DNA of 56,694 nucleotides from assembly GCA_937880125.1 (NCBI GenBank), contig CALFLU010000093.1, positions 1 through 56,694 on the forward strand. Direction: 5' to 3'. The number at the start of each line of letters is the position of its first letter. The first letter of the stretch is position 1. The translations under genes were made by a program, and so were the position numbers. This DNA is from an uncultured Eubacteriaceae bacterium. Its GTDB lineage: Bacteria; Bacillota; Clostridia; Eubacteriales; UBA1433. Under the pieces are notes generated by a model. It was not told the origin of the DNA and ran no database searches. It was given only the letters and a program-made list of their open reading frames with translations. This document shows positions 3,137 to 41,357 of the stretch, one piece after another.

Positions 3137-4636
3137 TCAAACGGTAGGTTTCATCGTGGGAAACAAAATTACATCGCGAATCGAATGTTGATCGGTAAAA
3201 AGCATGACCATTCTGTCAATGCCGATACCCACACCGCCCGTGGGCGGAAGTGCCGTTTCCAGGGCGTTGATGAAATCTTTATCAAAGGGGTGTGTTTCAT
3301 CGTCGCCTTGTTCTTTTTTCGTCATCTGTGCAAGAAATCTTTCCTTTTGGTCTATGGGGTCGTTTAACTCGCTGAAACCGTTGGAATATTCTTTTCCGCC
3401 GATAAACAATTCAAACCGCTGCGTATAACGCTCATCAAGTGGGTCTTTTTTCGCAAGGGGAGAAATTTCCACCGGGTGATGTGTCACAAAGGTCGGCTGC
3501 ACCAGATGTTCTTCGACGTAATTGTCAAAAGCTTCTTCAATAATCTTTCCGATTCCCCAACCTTCTTTGGCTTCCATGTTCAACTGCTTCGCCGCTTGCA
3601 CGGCTTGGCTTACTTCCGTCATCGCATCGAAATCCACATTTGTATATTGTTTTACCAAATCAACCATTCTGGCACGTGCAAAAGGCGCTGTCAATTCTAT
3701 CGTCTTACCTTGATAGACAACGCTTTGTGCTCCCAGCAATTCCTCACCCACATAGGCAAACAATTCTTCGATCATTTTCATGACATCCTGGTAATCCACG
3801 TAAGCCTCATAGCTTTCCAACATCGTAAATTCAGGGTTGTGTGTGGCGTCCATCCCCTCATTGCGAAACACACGGCCGATTTCGTAGACTTTGTCAAATC
3901 CGCCGACAATCAAACGCTTCAAAGGCAGCTCCAGGGCGATGCGCATATACATGGCAATATCCAACGTGTTATGGTGCGTCACAAAAGGACGCGCATTGGC
4001 ACCGCCCGCCAGTGTTGCCAACACCGGCGTTTCCACTTCAATAAATCCGCGTCGGTCCATGAAGTTTCGAACCGATTGAATCAGTTTCGAGCGCGTCAAA
4101 AAAATATTCTTCACCTCGGGATTGACAATCAAATCCACATAACGTTGCCGATAGCGCAAATCCGGGTCTTTAAGCCCGTGAAACTTCTCCGGAAGAATTG
4201 TTAACGACTTGGATAACAGCTTGGTTGTCTGCACGCGAATCGAAATTTGTCCCATCTTTGTTTTGAAGACTTCGCCGCTTGCGCCGACAATATCACCGAT
4301 ATCATAATTTTTAATTTCTTCGTAGGCTTCCTCACCCACGGTGTCTTTGCGAATAAATAATTGAATGCGCCCTGTAGAGTCCAATAAATCATAAAAAGAC
4401 ACTTTCCCTTGCCCGCGCTTTGCCATGATGCGACCCGCAAGATGAACAGGCTTTTCTTCCCATTCTTCAAAGTTTTCATTGATTGCCCCCGCATGGGCGT
4501 CTGTGGCAAAATGGGTTTGTTGGTAGGGATCATTTCCCTCGGCGCGCAATTTTTTCAACTTTTCGTGTCGAACTTGAATCATCTCGGAAAGATTTTCTTC
4601 GGAAATGTTGTTTTTTTCTTGATCTTCTTGTAGCAT
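3137..4636 (-). CDS. lysS: Lysine--tRNA ligase (class II)
   Basis: 499 aa with an N-terminal OB-fold region. Class II motifs are present (FRNEGMDATHNPEFTMLE and GGVGIGIDRMVMLF). Confidence 0.96.
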   Translation of the reverse strand: MLQEDQEKNNISEENLSEMIQVRHEKLKKLRAEGNDPYQQTHFATDAHAGAINENFEEWEEKPVHLAGRIMAKRGQGKVSFYDLLDSTGRIQLFIRKDTVGEEAYEEIKNYDIGDIVGASGEVFKTKMGQISIRVQTTKLLSKSLTILPEKFHGLKDPDLRYRQRYVDLIVNPEVKNIFLTRSKLIQSVRNFMDRRGFIEVETPVLATLAGGANARPFVTHHNTLDIAMYMRIALELPLKRLIVGGFDKVYEIGRVFRNEGMDATHNPEFTMLESYEAYVDYQDVMKMIEELFAYVGEELLGAQSVVYQGKTIELTAPFARARMVDLVKQYTNVDFDAMTEVSQAVQAAKQLNMEAKEGWGIGKIIEEAFDNYVEEHLVQPTFVTHHPVEISPLAKKDPLDERYTQRFELFIGGKEYSNGFSELNDPIDQKERFLAQMTKKEQGDDETHPFDKDFINALETALPPTGGVGIGIDRMVMLFTDQHSIRDVILFPTMKPTV

Positions 4637-4645
4637 GCTATCCTC

Positions 4646-5122
4646 TTATTCTGCAGAAATTACTTTAAACGTCACCTGACCACCCGGTGTCATCAATTCA
4701 ACAATATCGCCTTCACGCTTGCCGATCAGTGCACTGCCCAAGGGTGATTCATTAGACAATTTTCCGTTATCGGGATCTCCCTCACCACTGCCCAAGAGCG
4801 TATAGGTTAACGTTTCATCATATTTGGTATCATATACGGTAACTTTATCGCCGATATTGATAATTCCGTCACGTTTTGATTTTTTTGCAACCTTTGCGTT
4901 GCTGAGTTTTCGCTCGAGCTCCAAAATTTTGCCTTCCAAAAAAGCCTGCTCATTTTTGGCTTCCTCGTACTCGGCATTCTCGCTCAAGTCGCCGTATTCG
5001 CGGGCTGCCTTGATTTTTTCGGCGATATCATTTCTCGCTTCGCCGCGCAAATAGTCGAGCTCTTTTTTAATTTCATTATAGCCTTCTTCGGTTAAAATAA
5101 TATCTTTATTTGCTGTGCTCAC
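4646..5122 (-). CDS. greA: Transcription elongation factor GreA
   Basis: 158 aa with a coiled-coil N-terminus (LRGEARNDIAEKIKAAREYGDLSENAEYEEAK) and a C-terminal FKBP-like domain. GTG start with AAAGGA about 11 nt upstream. Confidence 0.95.
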   Translation of the reverse strand: MSTANKDIILTEEGYNEIKKELDYLRGEARNDIAEKIKAAREYGDLSENAEYEEAKNEQAFLEGKILELERKLSNAKVAKKSKRDGIINIGDKVTVYDTKYDETLTYTLLGSGEGDPDNGKLSNESPLGSALIGKREGDIVELMTPGGQVTFKVISAE

Positions 5123-34728: not shown

Positions 34729-34817
34729 GCGAGAGTGGCGGAACTGGCAGACGCGCAGGATTCAGGTTCCTGTGAGCAATTTAGCTTGTGTGGGTTCAAA
34801 TCCCGTCTCTCGCACCA
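34729..34817 (+). tRNA. tRNA-Leu (anticodon CAG), CCA encoded
   Basis: Acceptor stem GCGAGAG/CTCTCGC. Anticodon arm CAGGA-TTCAGGT-TCCTG. Long variable arm. T-arm GGGTTCAAATCCC. 3' ACCA. Confidence 0.9.
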
Positions 34818-36821: not shown

Positions 36822-37325
36822 ATGAACAAATACAAAAAAATAACAGTGATATTGTTGGTGCTGTTAATGGCCTTGTCGGTGGTGGGCTGTTCTTCCGGCA
36901 AATCCGAGGTCTATGATAACGGCGTCATCTCCGTTACCGTACCCAAGGGCTGGATGGTCTATGAGTCTAAAAACAGCAATAACGAGGTCGTAAAAACCAA
37001 TTTATCTGTTGTCAAAACCACCGATAAATCTAAAATTATGGACTCGCCCATGGTCACCATTTCCTATGCAGGGGCCGATAAAACATTATACCCTGTTACC
37101 AAAGACTTTTACGAAGATACCGAAGATCTCGCCGTCTGGGAAATTGGCGGCAAAAAATTTGAAGGTTTCAAAGGCACGTCCTTCGGTGCAGAGATGCTTT
37201 ATTATTTTGCCGTGGACGGTGATAAAGAGTACCAAGTTGTGGTTTGGCCCAATATGAAAAACGGCACGATCTCCCTTGAAGACGAAGATGTAAAAACGAT
37301 CGTTGAAAGCTTGACAGGCAAATAA
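36822..37325 (+). CDS. Hypothetical lipoprotein
   Basis: Signal peptide with the lipobox LSVVGC|SSG. AGGAGG RBS. 167 aa. I recognise no family. Confidence 0.7.
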   Translation: MNKYKKITVILLVLLMALSVVGCSSGKSEVYDNGVISVTVPKGWMVYESKNSNNEVVKTNLSVVKTTDKSKIMDSPMVTISYAGADKTLYPVTKDFYEDTEDLAVWEIGGKKFEGFKGTSFGAEMLYYFAVDGDKEYQVVVWPNMKNGTISLEDEDVKTIVESLTGK

Positions 37326-37409
37326 ACCCTTGTATATTTTGTGCAAGAATTCGCCTTGCAACGCACACGTATGAACGAAACGATTCATCCTAATTCCTCA
37401 AGCAGTCAC

Positions 37410-37453
37410 AACCCCCATGCAACATAGTATGTTGCCTTGGGGGTTCTTTTTTT
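37410..37453 (+). terminator. Intrinsic terminator after the lipoprotein gene
   Basis: Stem aacccccatgcaacat / atgttgccttgggggtt (one bulge), followed by cttttttt. Confidence 0.75.
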
Positions 37454-37641
37454 ATTCTTTACAGCTGTTCATTTTTGTTTTTTCGCTCTCCCATTTTTTC
37501 TGTTTCAATAAAGGATAATTGCGCGAGATATTTTGATGTAATCTGTTTTTGAACCCTAATTTTATAGATACCCTCAAAACTCTCTTTTATTCACACCGCC
37601 CTCGTTGTCATTTTTTACACGCTCAAAAAAATCTTCTACCC

Positions 37642-37670
37642 TTGACACCTATTTAAAAATAGTATATGTT
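37642..37670 (+). promoter_or_regulatory. Candidate promoter of the thi cluster
   Basis: TTGACA (37642..37647), a 17-nt spacer, then TATGTT (37665..37670). This predicts a leader of only about 85 nt before thiS. Confidence 0.45.
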
Positions 37671-37679
37671 TATATGCAG

Positions 37680-37740
37680 AGTGCAAACGCACGAAGGGGT
37701 ATACCACCACGGGTATAAATTTCCTTCGTGCGTTTTTTGT
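37680..37740 (+). promoter_or_regulatory. Candidate HMP-PP riboswitch (thiS motif): terminator-embedded aptamer
   Basis: Perfect 10-bp outer stem cgcacgaagg (37688..37697) / ccttcgtgcg (37723..37732). It encloses an inner hairpin tatacc-accacg-ggtata and is followed by T6 (37733..37738). The element ends 24 nt before the thiS TTG start. No THI-box sequence is present upstream. Confidence 0.6.
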
Positions 37741-37761
37741 TATCAAAGGCAGGTGAACAGC

Positions 37762-37959
37762 TTGATTATTGTCAACGGAAACAAACGCGTCTATGAAGAA
37801 AATCTCTCTTTTGCCGACTATTTGCAAAACGAGGGCTATAGGCTTTCCAAAATTGCAGTGGAGTGCAACGGAGAAATTGTCCCAAGATCTCATTATGCGC
37901 AAAGGCTTATACAGCGCGGAGACTGCATTGAAATCGTGCACTTTGTGGGCGGGGGCTGA
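37762..37959 (+). CDS. thiS: Sulfur carrier protein ThiS
   Basis: 65 aa from a TTG start (AAAGGCAGGTG upstream). The sequence LIIVNGNKR...ECNGEIVPRSHYAQRLIQRGDCIEIVHFVGGG ends in the C-terminal GG. The longer ORF-track form would include the leader hairpin. Confidence 0.85.
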   Translation: MIIVNGNKRVYEENLSFADYLQNEGYRLSKIAVECNGEIVPRSHYAQRLIQRGDCIEIVHFVGGG

Positions 37960-37961
37960 GC

Positions 37962-38777
37962 GTGTATATCAAAGTAAACAACCACGTTCGTCCACTGTCT
38001 GAGACAAACACCACCCTTGCGGATATTATGGGCGATTTTTGTGTCAACGGTTCTGACTTCATCGCCCTTGTCAACGGCACTGCCGCCAAAGCTCATCGAT
38101 TGCTGAAACCCGGCGACGAAATTTTTTTCGTTCCCAAAACCGACTTTGTCGACAAAGAAACTTGGCAAGCCATGATGCGTACGCGCTACACGCCTGCGGT
38201 TTATGAAAAAATTGCCGCCGCACGGGTGGGCATTGCAGGCTTGGGCGGATTGGGTTCCAATATCGCCATCATGCTTGGGCGCGCAGGCGTGGGTCATTTG
38301 CATTTAATCGATTTTGACAAAGTGGATGTCAGCAACTTAAACCGCCAACACTATAGCATTGCGCAATTGGGTATGTATAAAACCGCTGCCACGGCGCAAA
38401 ATATCCGTGCCGTTAATCCCTATATTGCACTGAGGGAAGACACAGCAACGGTAGATGCGACCAACATCGACACGCTGTTTTTAGAGGACGATATCATCTG
38501 CGAAGCTTTTGACGATGCCCAAAGCAAAGCACTGCTCGTCAACACGCTGTTGGAAAAACAACCGCAAAAAAAAATAATTGCCGCCTCGGGCATGGCCGGC
38601 TATGAAAGCAGCAATGCCATTCAAACAAACAAAATCACCGACCATTTCTACCTGTGCGGTGACAAAATTACCGAAGCAAAAGAAGGCTGCAGTCTCATGG
38701 CCCCACGAGTTATGATTTGTGCCGCACACCAAGCCAATATGGCGTTGCGACTGATATTAGACAAAAAAGAAACATGA
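37962..38777 (+). CDS. thiF: ThiS adenylyltransferase ThiF (short clostridial type) with an N-terminal ThiS-like beta-grasp extension
   Basis: E1-like motif [40 protein letters not shown]. The first 60 or so residues, [12 protein letters not shown]...[23 protein letters not shown], resemble ThiS but lack the terminal GG. GTG start. Confidence 0.85.
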
Positions 38778-38793: not shown

Positions 38794-39594
38794 ATGAACC
38801 GACACGAAGACAAACTGATTTTGGGCGGTAAGGAATTTACTTCCCGCTTTATTTTAGGCTCCGGCAAATTTGACATGGAGCTCATAAAGGCCGCCATCAC
38901 CCACGCAGATGCTCAAATTATCACACTGGCCCTGCGCCGTGCCAACAACGCAAAGGGTGCCAGTATTTTGGACTATATCCCCGAGGGCATCACCTTGCTG
39001 CCCAACACCTCCGGCGCACGCAATGCACAGGAAGCTGTGCGCATTGCGCGCCTTGCGCGCGAAATGGGGTGCGGCGACTTTGTTAAAATCGAAGTCATCC
39101 GCGATTCCAAATATCTATTTCCCGACAACCATGAAACCATCAAGGCCACGGAAATCTTGGCAAACGAAGGCTTTATTGTCCTGCCCTATATGTATCCCGA
39201 CTTAAATGCGGCAAGGGATATGGCCCTGGCAGGCGCTGCGGCCATCATGCCTCTGGGCTCGCCCATCGGCTCCAATAAAGGGCTTTGCACAAAGGAGTTC
39301 ATTCAAATTTTAATCGACGAAATTGACCTGCCCATTATCGTCGATGCAGGTATCGGCAGACCCTCACAGGCTTGCGAAGCCATGGAAATGGGCGCAGCGG
39401 CCATCATGGCCAATACGGCCATTGCCACAGCGGGCGATATTGCGCAAATGGCCAAAGCCTTTTGTCTTGCCATTGACGCCGGCAGAAAGGCCTACTTGTC
39501 GGGCCTTGGACGCATCATCCACAAAGGCGCCAGCGCCTCTTCGCCGCACAGGGTTTTTAGAACAACAACCGGAGGCGAAATAATATGTCCTTAA
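38794..39594 (+). CDS. thiG: Thiazole synthase ThiG
   Basis: [19 protein letters not shown], then VKIEVI...LPYM and GSPIGSNKG...IVDAGIG, typical of the ThiG TIM barrel. Confidence 0.95.
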
Positions 39595-40754
39595 AAGAAA
39601 CACGCATCAACCACATGCAGTATATGGAGGGCATGGAAATTCTTCACGATTCCACCATCATGCATGAAGTTATTGACGGCATGAATCGAATTGATTTTTC
39701 TTCTTACACAGAAAATGATGTCAAGGCCGCGCTGTCCAAACAAGTCCTCAAACCGTTTGATTTCGGCGCCCTATTATCACCGGCGGCAGGAGATTTTCTC
39801 GAAGAAATGGCCCTGCGCGCCCAAGAGGAAACACGCAGACATTTCGGCAACTCCATTTATTTGTTTACCCCGCTCTACATTTCTAATTATTGTGAAAATT
39901 ATTGCATTTACTGTGGATTCAATTCACATAACAAAATCAAACGCGCAAAATTGAATATGGAAGAAATCGAAAAAGAATTGGCGGCCATTGCCAAGGACGG
40001 TCTGGAAGATATTCTCATTTTGACCGGAGAAAGCCGAAAGCAATCCGACGTGAACTATATCGGTCAAGCCGCAAAGTTGGCGAGCAAATATTTTAAAACC
40101 GTCGGTATTGAAGTATACCCGATGAACACCGACGAATATGCACACTTGCATCAATGCGGCGTGGACTATGTGACGGTTTTTCAGGAAACATATAACGCCG
40201 ATAAATATGAAACACTGCACTTGGCCGGCCACAAACGCATCTTTCCCTATCGTTTCAACGCCCAGGAGAGAGCGCTGCGCGGTGGCATGCGCGGTGTGTC
40301 TTTTGCAGCGCTTTTGGGGCTGGACGATTTTCGCAAAGATGCCTATGCCACGGGGCTGCATGCCTATTTGCTGCAGCGAAATTATCCCCATGCGGAAATT
40401 TCCTTTTCCTGCCCGCGTCTGAGACCGATTATCAACAACGACACCATCAATCCCAAAGATGTGCATGAAAAAGAATTGGTGCAAATTATTTGCGCCTATC
40501 GTCTGTTTATGCCCTATGCGGGCATTACCGTTTCCACGCGCGAAAGTGCCCATTTTCGAAATCACATTATCCACATTGCGGCAACCAAAATATCCGCAGG
40601 CGTCAGCACGGGCATCGGTGAACACCAAGAAGACAGCGAAAAACAGGGCGACGAGCAGTTTGAAATCGCAGATAACCGCAATGTCAAAGAGGTGCTGGCA
40701 GCCATTTATGATGCCGGCATGCAGCCTGTTATGAACGACCATGTCTTCCTTTGA
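39585..40754 (+). CDS. thiH: 2-iminoacetate synthase ThiH (radical SAM tyrosine lyase)
   Basis: Radical-SAM cluster motif [10 protein letters not shown]. 389 aa. It overlaps thiG by 10 nt and the downstream gene by 14 nt. Confidence 0.92.
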
Positions 40755-41357
40755 TATTGTTGTCGTCACCAATCGTCATTTGTGTTGCGAAGATTTTTTA
40801 ACCCACATACAACGCCTGGCCGCAGCAGGCATTGACGGACTGATTTTGCGGGAGAAGGACTTGGATAAAGACGCCTATGGGCTCCTTGCAAGGCGTGTTA
40901 TGGCAATTTGTCTGCAATATGATGTATCCTGTTTTTTACATACACATATCGACGTTGCCCAACAATTGCACTGCCCCAATATCCATCTGCCTCTTGCGTT
41001 GTTTGAAAGCAACGCCTCCGATTTGTCGGCATTTTCGCAAATCAGCGTATCTGTACACGCCCCACATGAAGCAAAAAAAGCCGAGCGACTCGGCGCTTCT
41101 CGCGTGGTGGCGGGACATGTTTTTGAAACAGACTGCAAAAAAACATCCCCGGACGCGGAATAGATTTTCTTCGTGAAGTATGTGAAAATACTTCCCTGCC
41201 CGTTTATGCCATCGGCGGCATTACGCCCCAAAATGCACCGCTGATTGCCGACGCAGGCGCAGACGGACTGTGTTTGATGTCGAGTATGATGCTGTCTGCA
41301 GCACCGCAAGACATTCTTCGTCTATTGCGTCAAACCATCAACACCCCAAACCACTGA
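40741..41357 (+). pseudogene. ThiE/TenI-family gene (TenI-like features) interrupted by a -1 frameshift in an A7 run
   Basis: The reading frame stops at 41163 after ...GHVFETDCKKTSPDAE*. The frame that would be restored by inserting one base continues as GRGIDFLREVCENTSLPVYAIGGITPQNAPLIADAGADGLCLMSSMM... to the TGA at 41357. Adding one A to the run at 41137..41143 gives a continuous ...DCKKNIPGRGIDFL... Confidence 0.8.

Follow-up and report, generated by a model that had tools for sequence, protein, structure and literature searches.

The thi genes and their transcription unit

The DNA analysed here, called the window throughout, is a stretch of 56,694 nucleotides with a cluster of thi genes on its forward strand. 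The first gene is thiS (37762..37959, 65 aa), which matches PF02597 with an E value of 4e-11, the profile covering residues 4-65. It is followed by thiF (37962..38777, 271 aa; PF00899, E 7.5e-35), thiG (38794..39594, 266 aa; PF05690, E 1.6e-99), thiH (39585..40754, 389 aa), which has radical SAM and BATS domains (PF04055 and PF06968), and a thiE/tenI-like gene (40741..41294) that is split by a -1 frame change and matches PF02581 on its 140-aa N-terminal ORF. With Pfam matches for all five genes, the thiazole-branch cluster named in the initial annotation is confirmed. Downstream of the thi genes, Pfam identified a two-component system. In front of its PF00899 domain, ThiF is extended by about 75 N-terminal residues (37962-38192), and many relatives align only from about residue 60. 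This extension was considered as a second ThiS-like domain, which was rejected since BLASTP showed no similarity between it and the adjacent ThiS and Pfam gave no match.

The frame change in thiE lies near an A7 run at about 41134-41140. The N-terminal 140 residues are read in one frame and the C-terminal part of about 60 residues (…GRGIDFLREV…NTPNH*) in the -1 frame. Homologues of thiE with about 190 residues align over both frames, and one added A (A8) restores a single ORF. The split may stem from an assembly error or from slippage, or the gene may be a true pseudogene; as thiE is frameshifted in the assembly, the operon is possibly less than fully functional. Over the thi region, the window has 100% identity with contig DCDT01000039.1 (L121), which belongs to the MAG GCA_002316555.1, and with two contigs from metagenomes, of which one is labelled fermentation metagenome. 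DCDT01000039.1 has a run of 161 N inside thiE at 4587-4747 where the window has 10 bases, and is otherwise identical. It was discarded as evidence on the frameshift, because the N run lies immediately upstream and the A7 run is the same, so that the contig is not independent. On a third identical contig (L122), thiS was left uncalled by the gene callers.

The gene preceding the cluster (36822-37325) is an uncharacterised ORF of 167 residues. It has its own intrinsic terminator at 37410..37453 (+), a hairpin at 37410-37445 (-22.2 kcal/mol, z -5.9) followed by C and U7, and the thi genes are therefore a separate transcription unit. A simple terminator scan missed this terminator, probably because its stem is interrupted. 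A candidate sigma-70-type promoter, recognised purely by its match to the consensus, is found at 37642..37670 (+), between the terminator and the leader element described below. Its -35 box TTGACA (37642-47) and -10 box TATGTT (37665-70) are separated by a 17-nt spacer, agree with the consensus in 10/12 positions and form the only such match adjoining the element, as had been proposed before. The start of transcription would then be at about 37677-78, and the leader would have about 84 nt, in line with the earlier estimate of about 85.

The leader element and its parts

Directly upstream of thiS, the covariance models described below matched an HMP-PP (thiS-motif) element at 37678-37741 (+). 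The riboswitch proper, including the U6 tract, spans 37678-37738 (+). Read by eye, the element is AGA-GUGC-AAAC-GCAC-GAA-GGGG-UAU-ACCACC-A-CG-GGU-AUA-AAU-UUCC-UU-CGUGCG-UUUUUU, which agrees with the family pattern at each base. The initial annotation had described a perfect 10-bp outer stem (cgcacgaagg 37688-37697 with ccttcgtgcg 37723-37732), an inner 6-bp hairpin (tatacc 37700-37705, loop accacg 37706-11, ggtata 37712-17) and a T6 tract at 37733-38 directly after the outer stem. All three are seen in the sequence. The hairpin region was thus placed correctly, but the element begins 2 bases earlier than noted, with a conserved unpaired AGA (37678..37680, +). This trinucleotide comes first in most of the published rows and corresponds to the model positions 1-3.

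The AGA is followed by a short helix, P1 (37681..37692, +), that was missing from the initial annotation and belongs to the aptamer (ON) configuration. It is formed by GUGC 37681-84 and GCAC 37689-92 around the loop AAAC 37685-88, with 4/4 pairs canonical in the covariance-model alignment, and its 3' arm is common to the base of the terminator. The second helix, P2 (37693..37727, +), is present in both configurations and has 13 canonical pairs between 37693-37705 and 37712-27. Its 5' arm GAAGGGGUAUACC (37693-37705) leads into the conserved loop ACCACG (37706-11). The 3' arm consists of GGUAUA (37712-17), the bulge AAU (37718-20) and UUCCUUC (37721-27). The purine-rich joints had been described as unpaired. 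This holds for AAU alone, whereas GG 37698-99 forms G-U wobbles with UU 37721-22 in the family model. P2 also contains G37698 and C37707, which are candidates for the ligand pocket and a pseudoknot.

In the terminator (OFF) configuration (37685..37738, +), the base CGCAC 37688-92 / GUGCG 37728-32 stacks on P2, U6 (37733-38) comes next, and an A-U extension to 37685/37735 is optional. This gives a stem of about 20 bp that is contiguous save for one 3-nt bulge. The ribosome-binding site AGGTGA (37751-56) and the thiS start codon TTG (37762) lie at 37751..37764 (+), with 23 nt between the T-run and the TTG.

The element matches the thiS-motif (HMP-PP) class

The initial annotation had proposed a thiS-motif riboswitch for this leader, to be checked with a covariance model. 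The reference for this check was the alignment given in Stockholm format in supplementary file 2 of Atilho et al. 2019 (PMC6478431), and the window sequence was left out of all profiles. When all 64 published rows were aligned with MAFFT, the arm of P1 and the variable linker came out scrambled, and the alignment was unusable for a structure line; a homogeneous subset of 18 published rows was taken instead. Two covariance models were built from these rows, one with the published aptamer structure and one with the terminator structure. Both matched 37678-37741, the aptamer model with 53.9 bits (E 1.7e-13) and the terminator model with 56.2 bits (E 4.4e-11), and neither alignment contained a non-canonical pair, which bears out the proposal. 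With nhmmer, a profile of the 64 published rows matched 37679-37737 (+) with 48.3 bits and E 2.3e-14, and the second-best match within the 56.7 kb had an E value of 0.79. The element was the sole match of such strength in the window; the next-best covariance-model matches were ordinary terminators of 14-17 bits.

The invariant nucleotides were checked in the 64 published rows. The element has the expected base in 12/12 invariant and in 8/8 near-invariant (>=90%) columns, which sit at 37694-99, 37703-08, 37711-14 and in the U-tract. The class-defining bases GAA, the G-run, ACCACC, CG-GGU and UU are all present. Among the matches listed in the family search described below, the score of the element ranks 85/100, in the lower quarter, the 99 other members having 43-81 bits. 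Its main departures from the model are the 4-nt P1 loop, where 8 model positions are deleted, and the inserted 3-nt bulge. In the same listed members, 23/23 columns that are >=97% conserved among the other 99 are matched, 18 of which were fixed by the retrieval pattern. The element is thus ordinary for its class and fits the consensus at every defining point. Its exact sequence was absent from the alignment published in 2019. From its sequence, it is very probably a clear stand-alone HMP-PP ON riboswitch, an added member of an already known class. The ligand response would be that of the experimentally studied members, by homology.

The initial annotation had found no THI-box and considered the leader too short for a TPP aptamer. 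In agreement with this, the TPP model found no aptamer in the whole window at the gathering threshold and none in 37400-37800 at E<=10. As a control, TPP aptamers of related loci were detected with the same model at 54-69 bits, which makes the negative result for the window a valid one. With Rfam 15, the scan of the whole window returned only a tRNA and the scan of the leader at E<=10 nothing relevant. We then consider 16 GTDB loci with an unmistakable thiS motif (L001, L003, L005, L007, L009, L014, L021, L034, L037, L038, L044, L053, L056, L063, L068, L076), in which Rfam 15 found TPP aptamers in 5 loci and one tRNA, and no thiS-motif family. Since 16 clear members went undetected, the class has no model in the supplied library, and the silence of Rfam at the element is uninformative. 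The tRNA of the window is a tRNA-Leu (anticodon CAG) at 34729-34817, the only RNA gene found by Rfam or ARAGORN.

Covariation and gene context in the family

The initial annotation had called for an alignment of orthologous leaders. A metagenome search based on ThiF returned relatives of at most 59% identity, and family-wide covariation was used in place of the leaders of close relatives. For the thi coding region, the best nucleotide identity among the matches listed was 67-72%, to Clostridia MAGs, which suggests a Clostridia-like source. A pattern scan of GTDB genomes gave at least 120 loci, of which 116 of those listed match the published profile. The retrieval pattern fixed 18 core bases, so these loci carry no independent information on the conservation of the core. 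P1, the tip of P2 and the terminator base were free to vary, and it is there that covariation is informative. The family alignment made with the covariance model at E<=1e-8 contains 100 members with 96 distinct rows, after 9 antisense matches to the symmetric hairpin had been left out; alignments made in this way are biased toward the modelled structure.

Among the 96 distinct members from the matches listed, double-sided changes were observed in 4/4 pairs of P1 and in three pairs of P2. In the alignment to the aptamer structure 93% of the cells are paired, the observed score was reached in 0/500 shuffles, and slid registers all scored far below. In the alignment to the terminator structure (about 95 distinct members listed), 8/12 pairs of the lower helix, that is the terminator base and lower P2, covary, and 94.5% of the cells are paired. 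Covariation is thus seen in P1, P2 and the terminator base. Two strong matches are from neither of the two phyla in which the class has been reported, one of 59 bits on a contig of a MAG labelled Desulfovibrionaceae (L080, 966-1048, -) and one of 45 bits on a contig of a MAG labelled Duodenibacillus (L054, 6925-6980, -). These could be due to binning contamination or horizontal transfer.

The gene context is also that of the family. Members of the class are associated with genes for the synthesis or use of HET-P and typically lie immediately before thiS, as here. Among the matches listed, thiS is the first downstream gene in 95/111 motif-bearing GTDB loci, and the order thiS-thiF-thiG-thiH-thiE found in the window is the commonest one (38/111). 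When metagenome loci were retrieved via ThiF alone, which is unbiased for the RNA, the motif was found upstream on the same strand in 27/80 of them.

These data bear on the specificity of the element. The same fold could recognise another effector, for example HMP-P, HMP, TPP or a thiazole intermediate, and the tip of P2 (UAUACC/GGUAUA) and the AAU bulge are indeed unlike those of the tested RNA from Clostridium sp. Maddingley. However, the differing positions vary and covary freely within the family, every strictly conserved position is unchanged, and the gene context is canonical. In addition, HMP alone gave no activation in vitro in the published work (Atilho et al. 2019, PMC6478431). We regard a change of specificity as very unlikely and HMP-PP as the probable ligand.

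Folding of the leader and the two competing structures

The 96-nt leader folds with -34.3 kcal/mol (z = -4.7), and 0/200 shuffled sequences were equally stable. When RNAs of increasing length were folded, P1 and P2 were predicted for the transcript to 37727 (50 nt, -17.0 kcal/mol) and to 37729 (52 nt, -18.2 kcal/mol). For the transcript to 37732 (55 nt, -24.7 kcal/mol) and to 37741 (64 nt, -28.3 kcal/mol, z -5.8), the contiguous terminator was predicted. An extension of 3-5 nt beyond 50-52 nt is therefore predicted to suffice for the flip from P1 and P2 to the terminator. P1 and the terminator are mutually exclusive in these predictions, as the GUGC/GCAC helix is present at 50 and 52 nt and replaced from 55 nt on. 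A narrow, length-dependent interval for the folding decision has been published for the thiS constructs 52, 53, 54 and 66 (Atilho et al., eLife 2019, PMC6478431). The behaviour of the construct 52 thiS versus 54 and 66 thiS is mirrored in silico by the window RNAs, the 50-nt RNA corresponding to '52 thiS'.

As the fold favoured thermodynamically is that of a classic terminator, with about 20 bp and U6, the element could be read as a plain constitutive terminator or a leaky attenuator that senses no ligand and resembles the thiS motif only in its hairpin shape. The ordinary terminators elsewhere in the window do give weak matches to the same models, but the element scores about 40 bits above them. 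The loop and the G-run have no role in termination and agree with the family in each of the invariant positions, and a competing P1 helix is present that covaries across the family. Moreover, a constitutive stop between the promoter and a biosynthetic operon would leave the operon silenced. A terminator of this kind is extremely unlikely here.

In a further reading, the region would be coding, as the first 32 codons of a ThiS of 97 aa that begins with ATG 37666, and the hairpin would be incidental. The frame 37666-37959 is open, and the 97-aa protein is called on two identical public contigs (L121 1161-1454 and L123 1154-1447). However, this ATG is located within the -10 box and is not preceded by a ribosome-binding site, in contrast to TTG 37762 with its AGGTGA at a distance of 5 nt. 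The 65-aa version fully covers the Pfam ThiS profile, and in 95 family loci among the matches listed the median distance from the motif to the start of the ThiS match is 43 nt. A hairpin of about 20 bp with -28 kcal/mol and a U6 tail is also implausible within a coding sequence. The probability of this reading is negligible.

Proposed mechanism

As an HMP-PP riboswitch, the element would control thiS-thiF-thiG-thiH-thiE by transcription antitermination. The promoter at 37642-70 would start RNA synthesis at about 37677-78. According to the predicted folding and the family covariation, the nascent RNA would first form P1 (37681-84 / 37689-92) and P2 (37693-37705 / 37712-27). In the absence of the ligand, the emerging GUGCG (37728-32) would oust the 5' arm of P1, and P2 would grow into the terminator of about 20 bp with U6, so that transcription stops before thiS. 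When HMP-PP is abundant, it would occupy the P1/P2 aptamer, as judged by homology with the elements of Maddingley and C. lundense, which have been tested, and would probably be contacted by the conserved G-run (G37697-99) together with the loop cytosines (C37707-08). The bound HMP-PP would delay the invasion of P1 by GUGCG 37728-32 until the RNA polymerase has cleared the U-tract, which would allow read-through into thiS. The thiazole moiety and the coupling enzyme would then be made only when the pyrimidine partner is available. Since no TPP aptamer precedes the element, it is a single-input form.

If the frame change in thiE is real and no assembly error, there is a small chance of two further readings. 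The coupling of HET-P and HMP-PP could depend on programmed -1 frameshifting or transcriptional slippage, or the operon could now be a thiazole-only one in an organism of a precursor-sharing community. If true, programmed frameshifting or slippage would be a second regulatory layer, and under either reading the HMP-PP switch would sense imported, not self-made, pyrimidine.

Significance of the element

The class was already published in 2019 together with its ligand and mechanism, and the biological surprise is small. The element is an unannotated addition to a known riboswitch class and has no unusual features; its value is for annotation. Since Rfam 15 has no model of the class, standard pipelines are silent at such elements, and the public gene calls lengthen thiS by 32 codons straight across the riboswitch. 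A "missing THI-box" before a thiazole operon is a cue to look for the thiS motif of about 60 nt. With its 4-nt P1 loop and the adjoining promoter, the element is a compact natural example and a candidate for structural or synthetic-biology use.

Comparison with known systems

The closest tested counterpart is the thiS leader of Clostridium sp. Maddingley. The two leaders have in common the 5' AGA, P1, the pattern GAA-GGGG-NNN-ACCACC-N-CG-GGU-NNN...UU-CGUG and the U6 run. In both, the aptamer lies inside the terminator, P1 and the terminator base compete, and the element is found directly 5' of thiS in a thiS-F-G-H-E operon. In contrast to the Maddingley RNA, the element of the window has a P1 loop of only 4 nt (AAAC) and a 3-nt AAU bulge after P2. 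Its G-run pairs with UUCC, forming two G-C and two G-U pairs, whereas in Maddingley it pairs with UUUU. The tip of P2 is UAUACC/GGUAUA in the window and UACACC/GGUGUA in Maddingley, a covarying change from C-G to U-A that also occurs in other members. When the Maddingley construct was mapped onto the window, G24-27 corresponded to G37696-99 and C35 to C37707, U46-49 to U37721, U37722, C37723 and C37724, and C52 to C37727. In the Maddingley RNA, the mutations M1 (G26C) and M2 (C35G) led to a loss of the HMP-dependent reporter activation and of the HMP-PP-dependent read-through (PMC6478431). The counterparts of G26 and C35, G37698 and C37707, are both present in the window.

About 30% of the class are tandem TPP and HMP-PP logic gates, for example in Clostridium lundense, and about 70% are HMP-PP-only (PMC6478431). 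The tandem gates have the same HMP-PP unit and the same regulated genes as the window, but in these a TPP aptamer and a first terminator precede the motif, and neither is found before the element of the window. Among its relatives, a TPP aptamer was found immediately 5' of the motif in L001, L005, L009, L044 and L053, and also in L131. The window is therefore the HMP-PP-only, single-input form of the class.

The TPP riboswitch (THI element, RF00059) responds to the end product as an OFF switch, often through transcription termination, and its aptamer is a three-way junction of about 100 nt. It controls the same type of thiS/thiF operon in many relatives. No match to it was found in the window, where the leader of about 84 nt is too short to hold one. 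Of the 18 sampled ThiF loci without the thiS motif, 15 had a same-strand TPP riboswitch 5' of the thiF match (L124-L128, L130, L135-L138, L141, L144, L172, L174, L176). The sampled ThiF loci with the motif were the tandem L131 and L139, where the motif stands alone. This suggests that TPP and HMP-PP leaders are interchangeable across lineages. In conclusion, the thi operon is under the control of TPP, HMP-PP or both, depending on the lineage.
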